Below are positions 4,399 to 18,324 of a DNA stretch of 37,343 nt, in pieces; the stretch's first letter is position 1; each line of letters opens with the position of its first letter. The notes beneath the pieces were generated by a model that was given only the letters and a program-made list of their open reading frames with translations, was not told the DNA's origin and searched no databases. Source of the stretch: Candidatus Woesearchaeota archaeon (lineage in GTDB: Archaea > Nanobdellota > Nanobdellia > Woesearchaeales > GW2011-AR9); NCBI GenBank assembly GCA_018221085.1, contig JAAOXZ010000079.1, positions 1-37,343 on the forward strand, read 5' to 3'. The translations under genes were made by a program, and so were the position numbers.

Positions 4399-4487
4399 GC
4401 CCCTGTAGCATAGTAGCTATTGCGGCAGACTTGTAATTAACAAATCAAGCAATCTGCAGGTCGAGGGTGCAAGTCCCTCCAGGGGCT
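4399..4487 (+). tRNA. tRNA-Thr(UGU) with 16-nt canonical (37/38) BHB intron 4436..4451; no encoded CCA
   Basis: Acceptor GCCCCTG/CAGGGGC, anticodon stem GCAGA/TCTGC, loop CTTGTAA, T stem GAGGG/CCCTC. The intron forms a 4-bp helix CTTG/CAAG flanked by 3-nt bulges TAA and CAA. TATA-like ATTAATAAA ~26 nt upstream. The T loop (TGCAAGT) and D loop are atypical. Confidence 0.75.
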
Positions 4488-4495
4488 GTTTCTTT

Positions 4496-4954
4496 TTAAA
4501 GAAATTTGGGTCGAAGGTATAATTCACAGAGACCCTCAAAGAGTTTTTGAGTGGCCACGTCATCAACTGGGTTTATAACAACTACCAGATAAGACGGGTG
4601 TGCTTTGGCTGCGGTCTGTTCCCCTCTCTGCTTTTCAACAAATTCAAAATGGTGATTGTTTTGGCCCCTACTTGCCGTTTCATCCGGAGGCAGATACATA
4701 TTTAAGTCATATTCTTGAGAAATTTTTTGTGCAGCTCTTACTTTCTTCTCTGATAATCCTTGTTCTCCGCCAACGGAGTACCATCCAGCATCATCCTGCG
4801 GTGGAACAGCGAATGTTAACTCATTATCTTCAATAGCCATAAATTTGAATCCATTTTCAGAAAATCCACTTTCTCTTAAAAATGCAGATAAAACTAAATC
4901 ACTTAACTCTCCCAGAGATTCTTTTGCTTTCATTACTTGTTGGATCAATTTCAT
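4496..4954 (-). CDS. hypothetical protein (152 aa)
   Basis: ORF with a TATA box (reverse strand TTTATATAAC) ~24 nt upstream; visibly more G+C-rich than neighbours. Confidence 0.6.
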   Translation of the reverse strand: MKLIQQVMKAKESLGELSDLVLSAFLRESGFSENGFKFMAIEDNELTFAVPPQDDAGWYSVGGEQGLSEKKVRAAQKISQEYDLNMYLPPDETASRGQNNHHFEFVEKQRGEQTAAKAHPSYLVVVINPVDDVATQKLFEGLCELYLRPKFL

Positions 4955-5060
4955 GTTTTTATCATTATTAGGGGAGTTATATAAAGGTTTTGGTAGACTT
5001 AATATTGGGAGTTATAATCAAAACCATTATAAATGGGAATTATTATTAGCTTAACATCAT

Positions 5061-5083
5061 ATTAACGAGGTAAAAATAAAATG
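5061..5083 (+). promoter_or_regulatory. 23-nt translation-initiation leader ATTAACGAGGTAAAAATAAAATG, identical copy at 5480..5502
   Basis: Exact repeat including the GAGGT SD and the ATG; related versions lie before 5783 and 28264 (CGAGGAATAATAAAATG / CGGAGGAATAATAAAAATG). Confidence 0.8.
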
Positions 5084-5479
5084 ACTTTAGAACAGGATAT
5101 TGAAGAAATAAAAAGGAAAGTAGGAAACTTAAGTAATAAAGACCACACTACAGAGAGAACCGGATTATATATTTTAGTTGCTACTGCTGCACTATTCTCA
5201 TACGGAGCGCAACAGACTAGTGACACGAATTATGATGCCCTTAAAGCCATGAAATTACAAATCGAAGCTATGAAACCACAGGTTCAAGTTGAAAATGTTA
5301 TTGGTTATGACGCACCAGAAAAGTTTTATGAGATTGATGGGCAAAGAGTTTACTTAGAGATTGATGGAAAGCCCGTTGGACAGTATGTCAAAGAAATAAA
5401 AACTGAGCAACCTATTGGCAAATTACCCGTAGAAAAACAAGATGCTCCTATTCGTGGAAGAGCAGAACGTTTAAGATAA
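5081..5479 (+). CDS. small single-pass membrane protein (coiled N-terminus, TM, IDG-motif C-terminal domain)
   Basis: TM segment GLYILVATAALFSYGA; C-terminal FYEIDGQRVYLEIDGKPV; GAGGT SD in a leader identical to that of the next gene. Confidence 0.65.
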   Translation: MTLEQDIEEIKRKVGNLSNKDHTTERTGLYILVATAALFSYGAQQTSDTNYDALKAMKLQIEAMKPQVQVENVIGYDAPEKFYEIDGQRVYLEIDGKPVGQYVKEIKTEQPIGKLPVEKQDAPIRGRAERLR

Positions 5480-9848: not shown

Positions 9849-10251
9849 ATGATCAATTTAGATTGTGCTGGTTGTAAAAGAAATTGTTGTACTTTCGCCT
9901 TTAAGAAAATATTTGCCGCCTTAACTCCTCAAGAAGAGGTTGAATTTAAGGATTATTCTATTAAAATAAAAAATGAGGGCGGAGAAATTAGCGTCTTGAA
10001 AAAAGATTCTCAAGGAAATTGTGTTTTATGATGTCAAGGAAGAAAAATGTAAGATTTATTCCAAAAGACCCTTGGATTGTCGTACCTATCCTTTAATGAT
10101 GTGGTTTGACGATAAAATAATCTTTGGATTAGATGGGGATTGTCCCAAAATTAAAGAAATTACTCCGGAAGACATTGAAAAAACCAAACAAGAATGGTTG
10201 AATAGTAAACTACCTCTGTCTTGGATTAAAGCTTACACTGAATTAGAATAA
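9849..10251 (+). pseudogene. YkgJ/UPF0153-family Cys-rich (CxxCxxxCC) protein split by a frameshift into 9849..10031 and 10021..10251
   Basis: The first ORF carries CAGCKRNCC and ends ..GNCVL*. The second continues FYDVKEEKCKIYSKRPLDCRTYP, the usual second half of the domain. The frames switch at the T run 10024..10027. Confidence 0.6.
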
Positions 10252-10263
10252 TTTAACTAAAAT

Positions 10264-10271
10264 TTTATAAA
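10264..10271 (+). promoter_or_regulatory. TATA box (TTTATAAA) for the tRNA-Ser locus
   Basis: 28 nt upstream of the outer acceptor 5' end at 10299; no comparable element before the inner tRNA. Confidence 0.65.
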
Positions 10272-10298
10272 GAATCTTTCTATTTTTATTAACATTAT

Positions 10299-10584
10299 GC
10301 CATCGTCGCATAATCTGGTATTGCGCTGGTCTTGAATTTAAAACTAGTCAACCAGTTTCCTCTGGATACAGAGTGAAATCCAACCTTACTGCCGCGGTCG
10401 CATAATCTGGTATTGCGCTGGTCTTGAAACTTTAGCCTTTGGGTAAAGTCCCAAAAGCAAAGCTTTAGTGAACCAGTTTCCTCTGGATATCCCGGTTCAA
10501 ATCCGGGCCGCGGCGTCAAATAATAGTTGGATTTCACTAGTACCGGAGAATCTTTGATTCTCCTTGTATCCCGGTTCGATGGCG
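10299..10584 (+). other. outer tRNA-Ser-like gene (acceptor, D and anticodon arms, 13-nt 37/38 intron) with its T-arm position occupied by a three-way junction carrying the inner tRNA-Ser
   Basis: GCCATCG (10299..10305) and its exact complement CGATGGC+G (10577..10584). 31-nt and 19-nt blocks are identical to the inner tRNA. 13-bp helix 10372..10384/10526..10538, 7-bp helix 10364..10370/10565..10571, hairpin 10545..10563. No canonical T arm could be folded. Confidence 0.4.
10391..10515 (+). tRNA. tRNA-Ser(UGA), type II, with 42-nt intron 10429..10470 at 37/38; no encoded CCA
   Basis: Acceptor GCCGCGG/CCGCGGC, D loop with GG, anticodon stem CTGGT/ACCAG, loop CTTGAAA, 14-nt variable arm, T arm CCCGG-TTCAAAT-CCGGG, G73. 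Confidence 0.85.
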
Positions 10585-10609
10585 TCATAAATAAAAAAAA
10601 GGTGATAAA

Positions 10610-10810
10610 ATGTTTGAAGAAATTATTTGGTATTTGTTGGTTTTGGATTGTCTTATCTACGCTAGTCTAACTATTACTGCTAGTTGGCATAGTAAAACGG
10701 CACACCACTTTTGGAAAGGAGTTCCTTTACATTGGGGTATGGCCATTTGGTATGCTGTTTTGGTAGCGTGGGTAGGTTATGCTTTATTCAGGTTAGGAGT
10801 ACTATTCTGA
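10610..10810 (+). CDS. small membrane protein (66 aa, 2 TM)
   Basis: Hydrophobic ORF with an AGGTGA SD and no TATA box of its own, directly after the tRNA locus. Confidence 0.55.
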   Translation: MFEEIIWYLLVLDCLIYASLTITASWHSKTAHHFWKGVPLHWGMAIWYAVLVAWVGYALFRLGVLF

Positions 10811-17450: not shown

Positions 17451-17882
17451 TTATCCTTTCCAAACCTTCCCTTTGTATAAAATCTCTTTTATTCGATGCA
17501 TCGGAATAAAAATTTCTTTATTTTTTTCTTTAAGAATCAAAAAAGACTTTTCAATTTTTTTAATTCTTGCTGCAGATAATAAATGGTGCTTTTTCTTAAT
17601 TTTGTCGTGATATTTGATAGTAAACTCTGATTTATTTTTATGATGATGCACCGCATCCAATAATTCCCCTATTGATTTTTTAGTTTTTTTGAAAAAATCA
17701 ACTTTTTTGAAAATCAAGCTAGCAAAGAATAAGATTGATACTCCAGTAATTAAACTAAACACTGGATTTACTAAAAATCCCAAATTACCCAATCCATCCC
17801 AAATTCCTGCCCAAAAAAGAACCATACCCATCACTCCAAAAGCATTCCAAAAATAACGTTTTATTTTATGTCTACTAACCAT
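17451..17882 (-). CDS. 2-TM membrane protein with C-terminal DUF504 (MJ1316-like) domain
   Basis: The C-terminus ..FTIKYHDKIKKK...IKKIEKSFLILKEK.KEIFIPMHRIKEILYKGKVW fits the DUF504 I.y.dr...I..i..s.l....IP.HRI..i...G..w pattern; paralog of the next gene. Confidence 0.6.
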   Translation of the reverse strand: MVSRHKIKRYFWNAFGVMGMVLFWAGIWDGLGNLGFLVNPVFSLITGVSILFFASLIFKKVDFFKKTKKSIGELLDAVHHHKNKSEFTIKYHDKIKKKHHLLSAARIKKIEKSFLILKEKNKEIFIPMHRIKEILYKGKVWKG

Positions 17883-17883
17883 T

Positions 17884-18324
17884 TTATAATTTCCAATAAG
17901 ATTTTCCTTTATGTACTGCTTCGGTTATTCTATGAGCTGGAATAAAAATTTCCCGTTTTCCAGATTTATCTTTAACAATTAGACAATCGTTCTCAAAGTT
18001 CACAATTTTTCCTGCCGGAACAGAAATCTGTTTCTTTTTTACTTTATCGTAATATTTAATATGGAATTCATGTTTTTGAGGATGATTTTTAACCTTATGA
18101 ACAATCTTCCGGACTGCTTTTTCTAAACTGCCGGAAGGATCAAATTCCTTGATAATTAATCCTGAAAAAGTTAGTATGGCAAAACCGACAAACAATGCTA
18201 CCCATTCATTACCTAAGTAAGGTATTTCATAAAGTCCTTCCCATAACCCTTTCCAGATAAAGATGATACCTATCGCTACCAATAACGACCAAATAAAATG
18301 TCTATCTTGTTCTCTTAAAAACAA
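17884..18324 (-). CDS. 2-TM membrane protein with C-terminal DUF504 (MJ1316-like) domain (TTG start)
   Basis: Same architecture: W.G.WEGL membrane domain, then FHIKYYDKVKKK...IVNFENDCLIVKDK..REIFIPAHRITEAVHKGKSYW. Confidence 0.6.
   Translation of the reverse strand: MFLREQDRHFIWSLLVAIGIIFIWKGLWEGLYEIPYLGNEWVALFVGFAILTFSGLIIKEFDPSGSLEKAVRKIVHKVKNHPQKHEFHIKYYDKVKKKQISVPAGKIVNFENDCLIVKDKSGKREIFIPAHRITEAVHKGKSYWKL

Follow-up and report, generated by a model that had tools for sequence, protein, structure and literature searches.

The halves of split tRNAs pair with each other over 12 to 14 nt, and partial tRNA copies beside a complete gene are common next to integrated elements in archaea. Nanoarchaeum is free of RNase P and makes leaderless tRNA transcripts (PMC10100707). 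Three kinds of disrupted archaeal tRNA gene are distinguished in reviews (intron-containing, split, and permuted), and tRNA fragments at integration sites have also been described (PMC4033280). The reviews covered here mention no complete tRNA nested in another tRNA gene. The tRNA-Trp intron of Euryarchaeota carries a nested C/D box sRNA (PMC4090602), and nested introns are known in which the splice motif (BHB) forms only after a first step (PMC3978253). For DPANN, splicing endonucleases of broad specificity have been reported, incomplete tRNA sets have already been noted, and these lineages are expected to harbor disrupted tRNA genes that have escaped detection (PMC5829648).

Here, we describe a small archaeal (Woesearchaeota-like) genome in which a complete serine tRNA gene, wrapped in stems of its own, lies within the resident serine tRNA gene. 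The analysis covers a stretch of 37,343 nucleotides (the window) and related loci, designated by L and a number. The nested layout is both real and unusual, since it recurs in one distant relative (L084).

Architecture of the nested locus

The outer 5′ part is followed by the inner gene and then by the outer 3′ part (Table 1). Because the 5′ part precedes the 3′ part, this is not the order of a permuted tRNA gene, and the two outer halves are separated by only 198 nt. A repeat search of the region returned direct repeats at 10298-10336/10390-10428 (92% identity) and 10345-10368/10466-10489 (96% identity), confirming the second copy of the tRNA-Ser 5′ two-thirds that a first-pass annotation had placed upstream of the inner gene; TATCCCGGTTC occurs at 10488 and 10567, and GGCGTCA occurs at 10512 and 10581. 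Exact repeats of 31, 19, and 11 nt all fall inside 300 nt. All coordinates of that annotation hold, including those of the clamp, the hairpin, and both outer parts (the 5′ two-thirds and the 3′ acceptor strand). The fold of the region (−107.7 kcal/mol, z = −7.3) was matched by none of 200 shuffles. The neighbors of the locus are chromosomal and syntenic with L242/L243, and a gene about 270 nt upstream of the nested unit is split by a frameshift near 10020-10030. The locus has consequences for annotation as well: the inner gene escapes ARAGORN run with default settings, and a 97-codon antisense ORF spans the nested locus.

Table 1. Features of the nested tRNA-Ser(UGA) locus (positions in the window)
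Feature	Position	Strand	Basis
Archaeal TATA box (TTTTATAAAG), sole promoter of the whole unit	10263..10272	+	Read directly
Outer (resident) tRNA-Ser(UGA) exon 1, positions 1-37, acceptor strand GCCATCG	10299..10336	+	Direct repeat; acceptor and promoter identical in L246/L248
Outer 13-nt 37/38 intron	10337..10349	+	Relaxed BHB: 3/4 central pairs, 6-bp exon-exon helix
Outer exon 2, position 38 through variable arm, ends GGATA	10350..10368	+	Identical to 10471-10489
Helix H1, GGATACAG (10364-10371) with TTGTATCC (10564-10571), closes the cassette	10364..10571	+	Inverted repeat, fold, covariation analysis
Cassette 5′ flank X1: CAG, clamp 5′ strand (10372-10384), 6-nt leader CTTACT	10369..10390	+	Inverted repeat
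Inner complete tRNA-Ser(UGA), acceptor GCCGCGG/CCGCGGC, G73	10391..10515	+	Rfam, ARAGORN -i
Inner 42-nt 37/38 intron	10429-10470	+	Relaxed BHB: 3/4 central pairs and 6-bp helix
Cassette 3′ flank X2: 10-nt trailer, clamp 3′ strand (10526-10538), linker AGTACC, hairpin (10545-10563), TTG	10516..10566	+	Inverted repeats
Outer 3′ remnant: TAT, T-stem 5′ strand CCCGG, TTC, then acceptor 3′ strand (C)GATGGC, G73	10567..10584	+	Direct repeats

The inner gene had been read as a full type II tRNA-Ser(UGA) with an intron, and independent tools agree. It scores 43.6 bits with the Rfam tRNA model, against a threshold of 29; ARAGORN run with introns returns tRNA-Ser(tga) with a 42-nt intron and still calls tRNA-Ser after in silico splicing. 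The 7-bp acceptor stem, long variable arm, T arm, G73, and serine anticodon expected of a type II tRNA-Ser are all in place.

The outer gene is without the 3′ strand of its T stem. No type II tRNA-Ser cloverleaf was recovered from it (10299-10584), as ARAGORN gives no tRNA call for the outer sequence after splicing; restoring 10 nt (AAATCCGGGC) in silico leads the program to call tRNA-Ser. This result bears out the earlier observation that no canonical T arm folds in the outer gene, as would be expected after a 10-nt deletion. At the matching 3′ region, the orthologue L246 reads CCCGGTTCAAA, an intron, and TCCGGGCGATGGCG. Given the upstream frameshift, the gap in the window's T arm could be a sequence error. 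The outer acceptor stems are paired at 7/7 positions in both the window and L084, and the 13-nt outer intron is similar to the 15-nt intron of L081.

A single promoter precedes the outer gene

The TATA box has its 8-mer start 35 nt ahead of the outer +1, and spacings of 32 to 35 nt are found in 44 of 53 tRNA-Ser starts of the clade. As the first-pass annotation had claimed, it is the only one and lies upstream of the outer 5′ end: no TATA box was found within 60 nt of the inner +1, and none was seen in the window ahead of the outer 3′ part. The promoter of the orthologue L246 carries an identical CCTAAAATTTTATAAAG. Both outer genes, in the window and in L084, show the typical 32- to 35-nt TATA spacing, and neither inner gene has a TATA box. 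Transcription would begin at the outer +1 and reach the inner tRNA by way of the outer 5′ part.

The inner gene lies in a structured cassette

The cassette flanks form a clamp, which is a perfect 13-bp inverted repeat (10372-84/10526-38), and X2 additionally carries an 8-bp hairpin with a TTT loop (10545-63); both helices of the first-pass annotation proved to be perfect inverted repeats. The L084 counterpart of X1 is CAAGAAAAAATCTG CGACTAAT, and the clamp there is 12 bp long. Throughout the 37-kb window, the clamp is the only perfect inverted repeat of at least 13 nt within 250 nt. It is also the longest flanking helix among the 65 tRNAs and 60 tRNA-Ser genes examined, in which flanking helices of at least 12 bp surround the two nested tRNAs only.

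Between the window and L084, 6 of 12 clamp pairs and 3 of 7 hairpin pairs are changed on both sides, and none is changed on one side only. With these 9 double and 0 single changes, the two loci differ in sequence and pair perfectly, with zero G-U pairs in 39 bp of clamp and hairpin. X2 is homologous between the two loci (only 7 of 2,000 shuffles score as high); a 12-nt match of X2 to the T-loop introns of L099/L103 is at chance level. We infer that the clamp and hairpin are under selection. They may serve as a processing or stabilizing stem for the embedded precursor, or as structures used in movement of the cassette. Shuffling the clamp 3′ strand left the predicted inner-stem probabilities unchanged in thermodynamic folding, and we rejected the clamp as a folding insulator; because the inner stems form equally well with a shuffled clamp, a role as an insulator or processing stem is without computational support. 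The clamp is kept perfect through 6 double substitutions, which a merely dead shell would not call for; we counted this observation against the view of the outer gene as a dead shell.

Helix H1 is built from the two halves of the target palindrome GGA-TA-TCC together with the cassette ends. The 7-bp helix (GGATACA/TGTATCC) that had been assigned to a three-way junction is present, but it is not independent evidence of design because it is largely the result of insertion into the palindrome GGATATCC. Of the 13-bp and 7-bp helices in which the first-pass annotation sought compensatory changes, the former (the clamp) shows them; H1 in L084 is identical except for one G-U versus A-U pair.

Single genes in most relatives and a second nested case

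About 60 distinct related Woesearchaeota tRNA-Ser(UGA) genes are all single. The nearest relatives, identified through aCPSF1 (89%, 87%, and 84% identical) and the VTT protein, have a single gene or no tRNA nearby. Single genes in related genomes had been named beforehand as pointing to a decayed duplicate, and nearly all relatives (~60 loci) have them. L246/L248 (aCPSF1 83% identical) have one gene, its T arm intact, whose promoter and GCCATCG/CGATGGC acceptor are the same as those of the outer gene. The outer gene is thus the resident, orthologous to the single gene of relatives, and the inner gene appears to be the newcomer. The earlier reading of a decayed outer paralogue used as leader and trailer therefore stands in part: the outer gene has no T arm and supplies the sole promoter, but by comparison with L246/L248 it is the resident orthologue rather than a paralogue.

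L084, a contig of metagenome Ga0180007 from a different lineage (aCPSF1 77% identical), has at 4847-5148 the same nested architecture with an intact outer T arm. Its outer acceptor is GCCAACG/CGTTGGC and its inner acceptor is GCCGTGG, the inner tRNA scores 53.9 bits with Rfam, and the insertion point, between GGATA and TATCC, is that of the window. After removal of the insert and a D-loop intron, ARAGORN calls the L084 outer gene a canonical tRNA-Ser. The gene is uninterrupted in L164/L165, the syntenic sister of L084 (aCPSF1 96%); its 3′ 31 nt are 100% identical to the L084 outer gene, and the differences between the L084 outer gene and L164 are in loops only. The perfect outer tRNA of L084 (insert removed), with differences confined to loops, is consistent with a gene that still functions, and we counted it against the view that the outer gene is disabled. 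Downstream of the L084 inner tRNA comes TATTTTTC, a context typical of terminators (42 of 55 genes have at least four T within 14 nt), and T5 and T6 runs separate this tRNA from the outer 3′ exon. The 3′ flank of L081, a stand-alone gene, is similar to X2 of L084 (a score matched by 9 of 2,000 shuffles), suggesting that a gene was copied as DNA together with its flanks.

Relatives of this tRNA-Ser gene have introns of 13 to 100 nt in the D-loop, at 37/38, and in the T-loop (59/60), and its intron content turns over very fast among close relatives. Partial copies of the same tRNA lie beside the complete gene in many relatives (5′ copies in at least 14; 3′ copies in L007, L062, and L099), and an integrase-bearing element adjoins the same tRNA-Ser(UGA) in L166-L169. 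The 5′ duplication leaders of relatives were rejected as introns, since they form a 2x1 internal loop and not a BHB (partly hand analysis).

A search of 1.6 Mb of related DNA for perfect inverted repeats of at least 11 bp around a T-loop motif returned the window and no other clamped or nested tRNA; it missed L084 only because the T stem there reads CCCAG. Two window proteins looked up by exact sequence were found on no other contig. Among viral contigs, the 3′ junction motif gave 70 matches, all unrelated (phage tRNAs and coding sequence), and no two anticodon arms 60 to 90 nt apart were detected. BLAST against phages and plasmids gave no match.

Splice motifs at the cassette borders

Using a scanner that recovers the clade's real T-loop introns, we found no BHB or relaxed BHB common to the window and L084 at the cassette borders or the inner tRNA ends, and a two-step scan for nested BHBs, after any first-step excision, gave no solution. 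Cuts at the cassette borders that are consistent with the product have 1 to 3 (window) or 2 to 4 (L084) central pairs and a 0-bp exon-exon helix, versus 3 to 4 central pairs and a 5- to 6-bp helix in 16 bona fide T-loop introns. At neither locus does the cassette show the bulges and 4-bp helix that define an archaeal BHB intron at its borders. By ARAGORN, removal of the cassette restores a tRNA in L084 and not in the window. Both forms of the proposal that the locus is a giant intron or a split-tRNA-like arrangement are therefore unsupported, with one splicing step or with two.

Two further candidates were rejected. Release without RNase P could proceed through a BHB formed between the clamp and the inner acceptor stem, but on inspection by hand the leader and trailer lack the appropriate pairing in both loci. 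Sharing of the inner T arm by the outer 5′ part through alternative splicing was discarded because there is no BHB at 10508/10509 or 10576/10577.

Origin of the nested gene

The explanation that we favor, with moderate confidence, is that a second tRNA gene has been inserted into the resident gene, with the inner gene as the working copy run off the outer promoter and the outer gene decaying. A cassette of ~200 nt, comprising a complete tRNA-Ser(UGA) gene and short structured flanks (the 12- to 13-bp clamp and the small TTT-loop hairpin), would have entered the resident single-copy tRNA-Ser(UGA) gene at the DNA level, at the center of the palindrome GGA-TA-TCC that joins the variable arm to the T stem. 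The insertion would have disabled the outer gene, which may now be decaying, intact in L084 and with a 10-nt loss in the window; a decaying shell is the best reading of the window's outer gene. The ordinary end-processing enzymes RNase P (here a predicted enzyme) and RNase Z would free the inner tRNA, its 42-nt intron would be spliced out, and the cell would use the product as its working tRNA-Ser(UGA). In appearance, the insert is unlike an ordinary archaeal intron.

A more tentative possibility is that tRNA-in-tRNA is a working, fourth kind of disrupted tRNA gene with an operative clamp and hairpin, either through non-BHB excision that yields two tRNAs per transcript or as a self-complementing mobile cassette that passes from genome to genome and takes over the function of the essential gene it disrupts. 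Its RNA-level form we consider unlikely: the cassette would be a giant noncanonical intron, or the outer gene a cis-split tRNA, and two tRNA-Ser(UGA) species with different acceptor stems would come from each transcript. After release of the inner tRNA, the clamp would hold the outer pieces together, much as leader/trailer pairing does in the split tRNAs of Nanoarchaeum; trimming and ligation would follow, and the window would be a recently decayed or mis-sequenced copy of the system. The canonical L084 outer tRNA-Ser, recovered without its insert and D-loop intron, speaks for such a system, as do the 7/7 paired outer acceptors of both loci, the 9 compensatory double changes in clamp and hairpin, a clamp length (12 to 13 bp) in the range of split-tRNA pairing (12 to 14 nt), the broad specificity of DPANN endonucleases (PMC5829648), and the precedent of stepwise nested introns (PMC3978253). 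However, no shared BHB or relaxed BHB was found at the borders, at the inner ends, or after a first excision, the insertion site has no flanking exon-exon helix, and the T5/T6 runs of L084 separate the inner tRNA from the outer 3′ exon. The window's outer gene is missing half its T arm, the same anticodon in near-identical bodies offers no obvious benefit, and one gene suffices in close relatives.

Somewhat less likely still is a small mobile element that either duplicates TA in the manner of a MITE or relies on a recombinase cutting with a 2-nt stagger. Its clamp, hairpin, and terminal repeats would provide recognition in the DNA rather than act as RNA structures; insertion into an essential resident gene would be tolerated because the cassette brings its own tRNA-Ser. 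TA flanks the insert on both sides in both loci within a palindromic target, and the joined cassette ends form a TA-centered palindrome, perfect over 14 nt in L084 (TTCTTG-TA-CAAGAA; 6-bp terminal repeat CAAGAA/TTCTTG) and imperfect in the window, as is the repeat. The same site is filled in two lineages and empty in the nearest relatives, the rapid intron turnover of this gene and the lack of G-U pairs in the 39 bp of clamp and hairpin fit such an element, and an integrase-bearing element lies beside the same tRNA in L166-L169. Yet there are just two known instances, no further copy of the flanks occurs in the window or across 1.6 Mb of related loci, the window has no transposase or integrase, viral, phage, and plasmid collections gave no match, and the perfect repeats, subterminal in position, are asymmetric (28 nt extra on the right). 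The partial tRNA copies in relatives (5′ in at least 14; 3′ in L007, L062, and L099), the integrase in L166-L169, and the published tRNA fragments at integration sites (PMC4033280) would also suit a scar of integrase-mediated integration and excision at a tRNA attachment site. We regard this origin as very improbable, since integration yields tandem direct copies around an element and not a nested gene with a different acceptor stem, the halves lie only 198 nt apart with no integrase-bearing element between them, and the structured flanks recur in L084 with compensatory changes. Least credible of all is an assembly chimera of two tRNA-Ser strain variants. Exact repeats of 31, 19, and 11 nt within 300 nt, a metagenomic contig with a frameshift nearby, and two proteins found on no other contig by exact look-up would invite one, but the junctions are not at shared k-mers, and the independent L084 contig (aCPSF1 77%) has the same architecture with a different yet perfectly paired clamp and hairpin.

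Comparison with known systems

The nested gene is a new variant of disrupted tRNA gene. Under the favored reading, insertion of a second gene, it illustrates a way to replace an essential single-copy tRNA gene in place, in which the incoming gene supplies the function while using the existing promoter. It could plausibly be an intermediate in the fast replacement of acceptor stems and introns among close DPANN relatives, and it may bear on the origin of split or permuted genes. If an outer tRNA of the L084 type is matured, a new RNA-processing route is implied.

Like the multiple and noncanonical BHB introns of archaea (Thermoproteales, DPANN), the cassette is a foreign segment at a noncanonical position, and both nested genes keep their 37/38 introns. 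Unlike those introns, the segment is a whole tRNA with no BHB or exon-exon helix and resembles a gene copy with its flanks. As in the split tRNAs of Nanoarchaeum equitans and the tri-split tRNAs of Caldivirga, a 12- to 13-bp helix could join two parts, and complementary sequences of the 12- to 14-nt class follow the 5′ part and precede the 3′ part (13 bp in the window, 12 bp in L084). No BHB, relaxed or otherwise, was found where the tRNA body meets this joining helix. In contrast to split genes, which are separate and have their own promoters, the locus is one transcription unit with a single TATA box before the outer 5′ part, and the 200-nt gap between its parts is occupied by a complete tRNA that has the same identity. 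In its tight promoter spacing the locus resembles the leaderless tRNA transcripts of Nanoarchaeum, which counts against release by RNase P.

The C/D box sRNA in the tRNA-Trp intron is likewise a functional small RNA cotranscribed within a tRNA gene (PMC4090602); there, the host is a canonical 37/38 BHB intron and the guest a guide RNA, whereas the present guest is another tRNA, housed at a site not recognizable as an intron. Where archaeal viruses and plasmids integrate, partial tRNA duplications also leave resident fragments beside a complete copy, and tRNA-Ser(UGA) is targeted in L166-L169; here, however, the arrangement is nested rather than tandem, no element or integrase lies between the parts, and the structured flanks are conserved. 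Finally, polycistronic tRNA precursors matured by RNase P and RNase Z resemble the locus in the putative release route of the inner tRNA, but the partners here are the two halves of one disrupted gene rather than separate genes.

Structure of the nested tRNA-Ser locus

The window derives from the chromosome of a Woesearchaeota/Nanoarchaeota-type DPANN archaeon. Its genes include those for proteasome beta, aCPSF1, a CCA-adding enzyme, SMC, and GyrB, and the top matches of its aCPSF1 are Woesearchaeota MAGs. Two tandem genes carry MJ1316 domains, annotated as recognizing RNA 2′,3′-cyclic phosphate ends, such as tRNA splicing endonuclease produces. Another tRNA in the window (Rfam, 54.6 bits) was miscalled tRNA-Asn(att) by ARAGORN in default mode and was called tRNA-Thr(UGU) with a 16-nt 37/38 intron when introns were allowed.

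The layout described in the first-pass annotation, a complete tRNA-Ser gene inside a second tRNA-Ser-like gene, was recovered in every part and position. The inner gene scored 43.6 bits as a tRNA (Rfam threshold, 29); ARAGORN did not call it in default mode but, with introns allowed, returned tRNA-Ser(UGA) with a 42-nt intron. The outer 5′ part repeats the inner gene in two blocks, and TATCCCGGTTC and GGCGTCA are each present twice. The 289-nt nested region folded far better than shuffled sequences (z = −7.3), and the perfectly paired helix flanking the inner tRNA (the clamp) is the sole perfect inverted repeat of ≥13 nt (≤250 nt apart) in the entire window. Spliced in silico, the outer gene was called a tRNA only once AAATCCGGGC was restored. 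Trust in the apparent 10-nt gap in its T arm is affected by a frameshift ~270 nt upstream (near 10020-10030), where a CxxCxxCC (YkgJ-like) gene is split into two overlapping frames, as either a pseudogene or a contig indel error. An antisense ORF of 97 codons spanning the whole locus is almost certainly spurious; gene callers could label it a hypothetical protein, masking the tRNAs.

Coordinates of features in the window and in related contigs (L-numbers)
Feature	Contig	Coordinates	Strand
tRNA-Thr(UGU)	Window	4399-4487	+
YkgJ-like gene	Window	9849-10251	+
Antisense ORF	Window	10295-10588	-
Outer tRNA-Ser(UGA)	Window	10299-10584	
Repeat, outer/inner	Window	10298-10336/10390-10428	
Repeat, outer/inner	Window	10345-10368/10466-10489	
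Clamp, 13 bp	Window	10372-84/10526-38	
Inner tRNA-Ser(UGA)	Window	10391-10515	
Hairpin, 8 bp	Window	10545-63	
Region 3′ of the outer gene	Window	10585-10612	
Next ORF	Window	10610-10810	
MJ1316-domain genes	Window	17451-18321	-
Palindromic junction	L003	8393-8404	
Palindromic junction	L025	8776-8785	
Leader	L093	6257-6330	
Leader	L242	10202-10270	
Leader	L009, L011, L020, L023, L024 (twice), L032, L062, L099, L103, L114/L040, L117, L243		
Partial 3′ copy	L007	8530-8600	
Partial 3′ copy	L062	5300-5400	
Partial 3′ copy	L099	8820-8900	
Tandem tRNA-Ser genes	L112	8437-8765	
Integrase block	L166	5452-7890	

The resident gene and a second nested case

Approximately 180 related loci, gathered via aCPSF1 and a neighboring membrane protein, yielded ~60 distinct tRNA-Ser(UGA) genes, nearly all single. 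The gene body is almost invariant among these relatives, so the 31 nt that the inner and outer genes have in common are not proof of recent duplication. Acceptor stems and introns are highly variable, with introns of 13 to 100 nt in the D-loop, at 37/38, and in the T-loop (59/60) gained or lost between close relatives. L246/L248 (aCPSF1, 83%) have a single tRNA-Ser(UGA) with an intact T arm and share the promoter (CCTAAAATTTTATAAAG) and acceptor (GCCATCG/CGATGGC) of the window outer gene. The outer gene is thus the orthologue that was resident, and the inner gene is the addition. In L112, a tRNA-Ser(UGA) gene carrying D-loop and 37/38 introns stands in tandem with a tRNA-Ser(CGA) gene ~50 nt away, an ordinary arrangement in contrast to the nested layout.

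A single ordinary tRNA-Ser in relatives had been named as support for a decayed duplicate; almost all of the genes are single, but contig L084 (Ga0180007_10007798; aCPSF1 77% identical to that of the window), an independent case, is nested too. Its outer tRNA-Ser(UGA) (acceptor GCCAACG, D-loop intron) is broken after GGATA. The insert begins CAAGAAAAAATCTG-CGACTAAT, runs through an inner tRNA-Ser(UGA) that is complete (Rfam, 53.9 bits; acceptor GCCGTGG), and continues with TATTTTTCAAAA-CAGATTTTTTCT-GTACA, the hairpin GAAGAGC-TTT-GCTCTTC, and TTG. The outer gene then resumes with TATCCCAG..., its T arm and acceptor intact, and was called tRNA-Ser after in silico splicing. In the syntenic sister lineage L164/L165 (aCPSF1, 96% amino acid identity; shared aCPSF1-NUDIX-promoter order), tRNA-Ser(UGA) is uninterrupted and matches the L084 outer gene exactly over the 3′ 31 nt. 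The nested arrangement is thus real, rare (2 of ~60 genes), and lineage specific.

Anatomy and transcription of the insert

Both inserts lie at the center of the 8-bp palindrome GGATATCC, formed by the variable-arm 3′ strand and the T-stem 5′ strand, with TA on each side. The GGATACA/TGTATCC helix thus follows largely automatically from insertion at this site. Most relatives have a palindrome at this junction (GGATATCC or GGAATTCC, e.g., L003 and L025; longer in L003, GGGAATTCCC), and it is the exact site that the cassette, the inner gene with its structured flanks, occupies.

Compensatory change had been sought in the 13-bp and 7-bp helices. In the one pairwise comparison that the two nested instances afford, 6 of 12 aligned clamp pairs and 3 of 7 hairpin pairs differed in both strands, with no one-sided differences, and the 7-bp helix was invariant. 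Conservation of clamp and hairpin indicates selection. The 3′ flanks of the two inserts are alignable (equal score in only 7 of 2,000 shuffles), and flanking helices of ≥12 bp surround the two nested tRNAs only; those of other tRNAs reached ≤10 bp in one survey and ≤9 bp in another and were AT-rich promoter palindromes. Folding of the inner tRNA is predicted to be independent of the clamp. The L084 3′ flank resembles that of a stand-alone gene with an inner-type acceptor, L081 (9 of 2,000 shuffles as good), and the similarity of its 5′ flank to the TATA-proximal region of the same gene is weak (40 of 2,000), which points to an insert copied at the DNA level from a gene together with short stretches on either side.

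A TATA 8-mer starts 32 to 35 nt upstream of +1 at 44 of 53 tRNA-Ser starts and 35 nt upstream for both outer genes. No TATA box was found within 60 nt upstream of either inner gene, so transcription of the inner tRNA must pass through the outer 5′ part, as first proposed. Runs of ≥4 T within 14 nt mark the gene end in 42 of 55 related genes; L084 has T5 immediately 3′ of the inner tRNA and T6 inside the clamp 3′ strand, so that transcription would probably reach its outer 3′ exon inefficiently. The usual T run is absent after both window genes, and the next ORF, preceded by a GGTGAT motif, begins 25 nt past the outer 3′ end; the tRNA unit may be cotranscribed with it.

Leaders, partial copies, and integration in relatives

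At least 14 relatives carry a structured leader 5′ of tRNA-Ser(UGA). Its first element is a copy of the initial 13 nt of the gene itself (GCCnnnGTCGCAT, agreeing with each lineage's acceptor), followed by a hairpin, (G/T)CGCGAC, 8 to 25 nt, and the full gene. (G/T)CGCGAC pairs with positions 7 to 11 of the copy. The leader forms a 2×1 internal loop instead of a bulge-helix-bulge (BHB) splice motif. The promoter lies 32 to 35 nt 5′ of the copy, and none precedes the real gene. Partial 3′-end copies just 3′ of the complete gene (L007, L062, and L099) follow a short spacer with a same-style hairpin (..AATC YTT GATT..); the L099 repeat is 53 nt, terminator included. In L166-L169, a tyrosine-recombinase integrase, Hjc resolvase, and DNA methyltransferase block directly 3′ of tRNA-Ser(UGA) shows this gene to be a mobile-element integration site in a relative; its D arm and TATTTTTC trailer are like the L084 inner gene.

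Origin of the nested arrangement

We lean toward insertion, into the resident gene, of a cassette with a complete tRNA-Ser(UGA). The inner tRNA would be the working copy, transcribed from the resident promoter and, we infer, freed by end processing (RNase P is putative in this lineage), and the resident gene would be disabled, still intact in L084 and with the T-stem 3′ strand lost in the window. An arrangement that works as a giant intron or a cis-split tRNA, as the first-pass annotation suggested, agrees with the intact L084 outer gene and the compensatory changes, but we consider it unlikely, given the broken window outer gene, the T runs inside the insert, and the missing BHB. Our BHB scanner, built on the standard geometry (4-bp central helix, cuts between nucleotides 2 and 3 of each 3-nt bulge), recovered the T-loop introns of 16 relatives (three or four of four central pairs, 5- to 6-bp exon-exon helix) and the 37/38 introns of the clade, the two in the window among them. 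At the insert borders, cuts restoring GGATATCC gave one to three central pairs in the window and two to four in L084, with no exon-exon helix and no BHB feature common to both loci. Neither wider scans of the two loci nor a two-step search for a BHB formed only after a first excision, as known for nested introns (PMC3978253), gave a consistent motif, and the clamp and the inner acceptor stem are not connected by a BHB.

Somewhat less probable still is a mobile DNA cassette, with the helices acting as signals at the DNA level. The flanking TA, the palindromic target, the joined L084 ends (TTCTTG-TA-CAAGAA), and one site filled in two lineages and empty in sisters would suit it, but we found no other copies in the window or in 1.6 Mb of related loci, no transposase in the window, and no match in viral, phage, or plasmid sets. 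We give little credence to an integration scar and least to an assembly chimera, which L084 counters.

Reviews distinguish tRNA genes that contain introns, are split, or are permuted (PMC4033280), and a C/D box sRNA is nested within a tRNA-Trp intron (PMC4090602); a tRNA inside a tRNA is not described in these sources or in PMC5829648. Increased disruption of tRNA genes is associated with the DPANN endonucleases, and the incomplete tRNA sets suggest undiscovered forms (PMC5829648). Although the BHB that defines both split tRNAs and tRNA introns is missing, the nested case has in common with the former a 12- to 13-bp joining helix and with the latter an interruption of the mature sequence.
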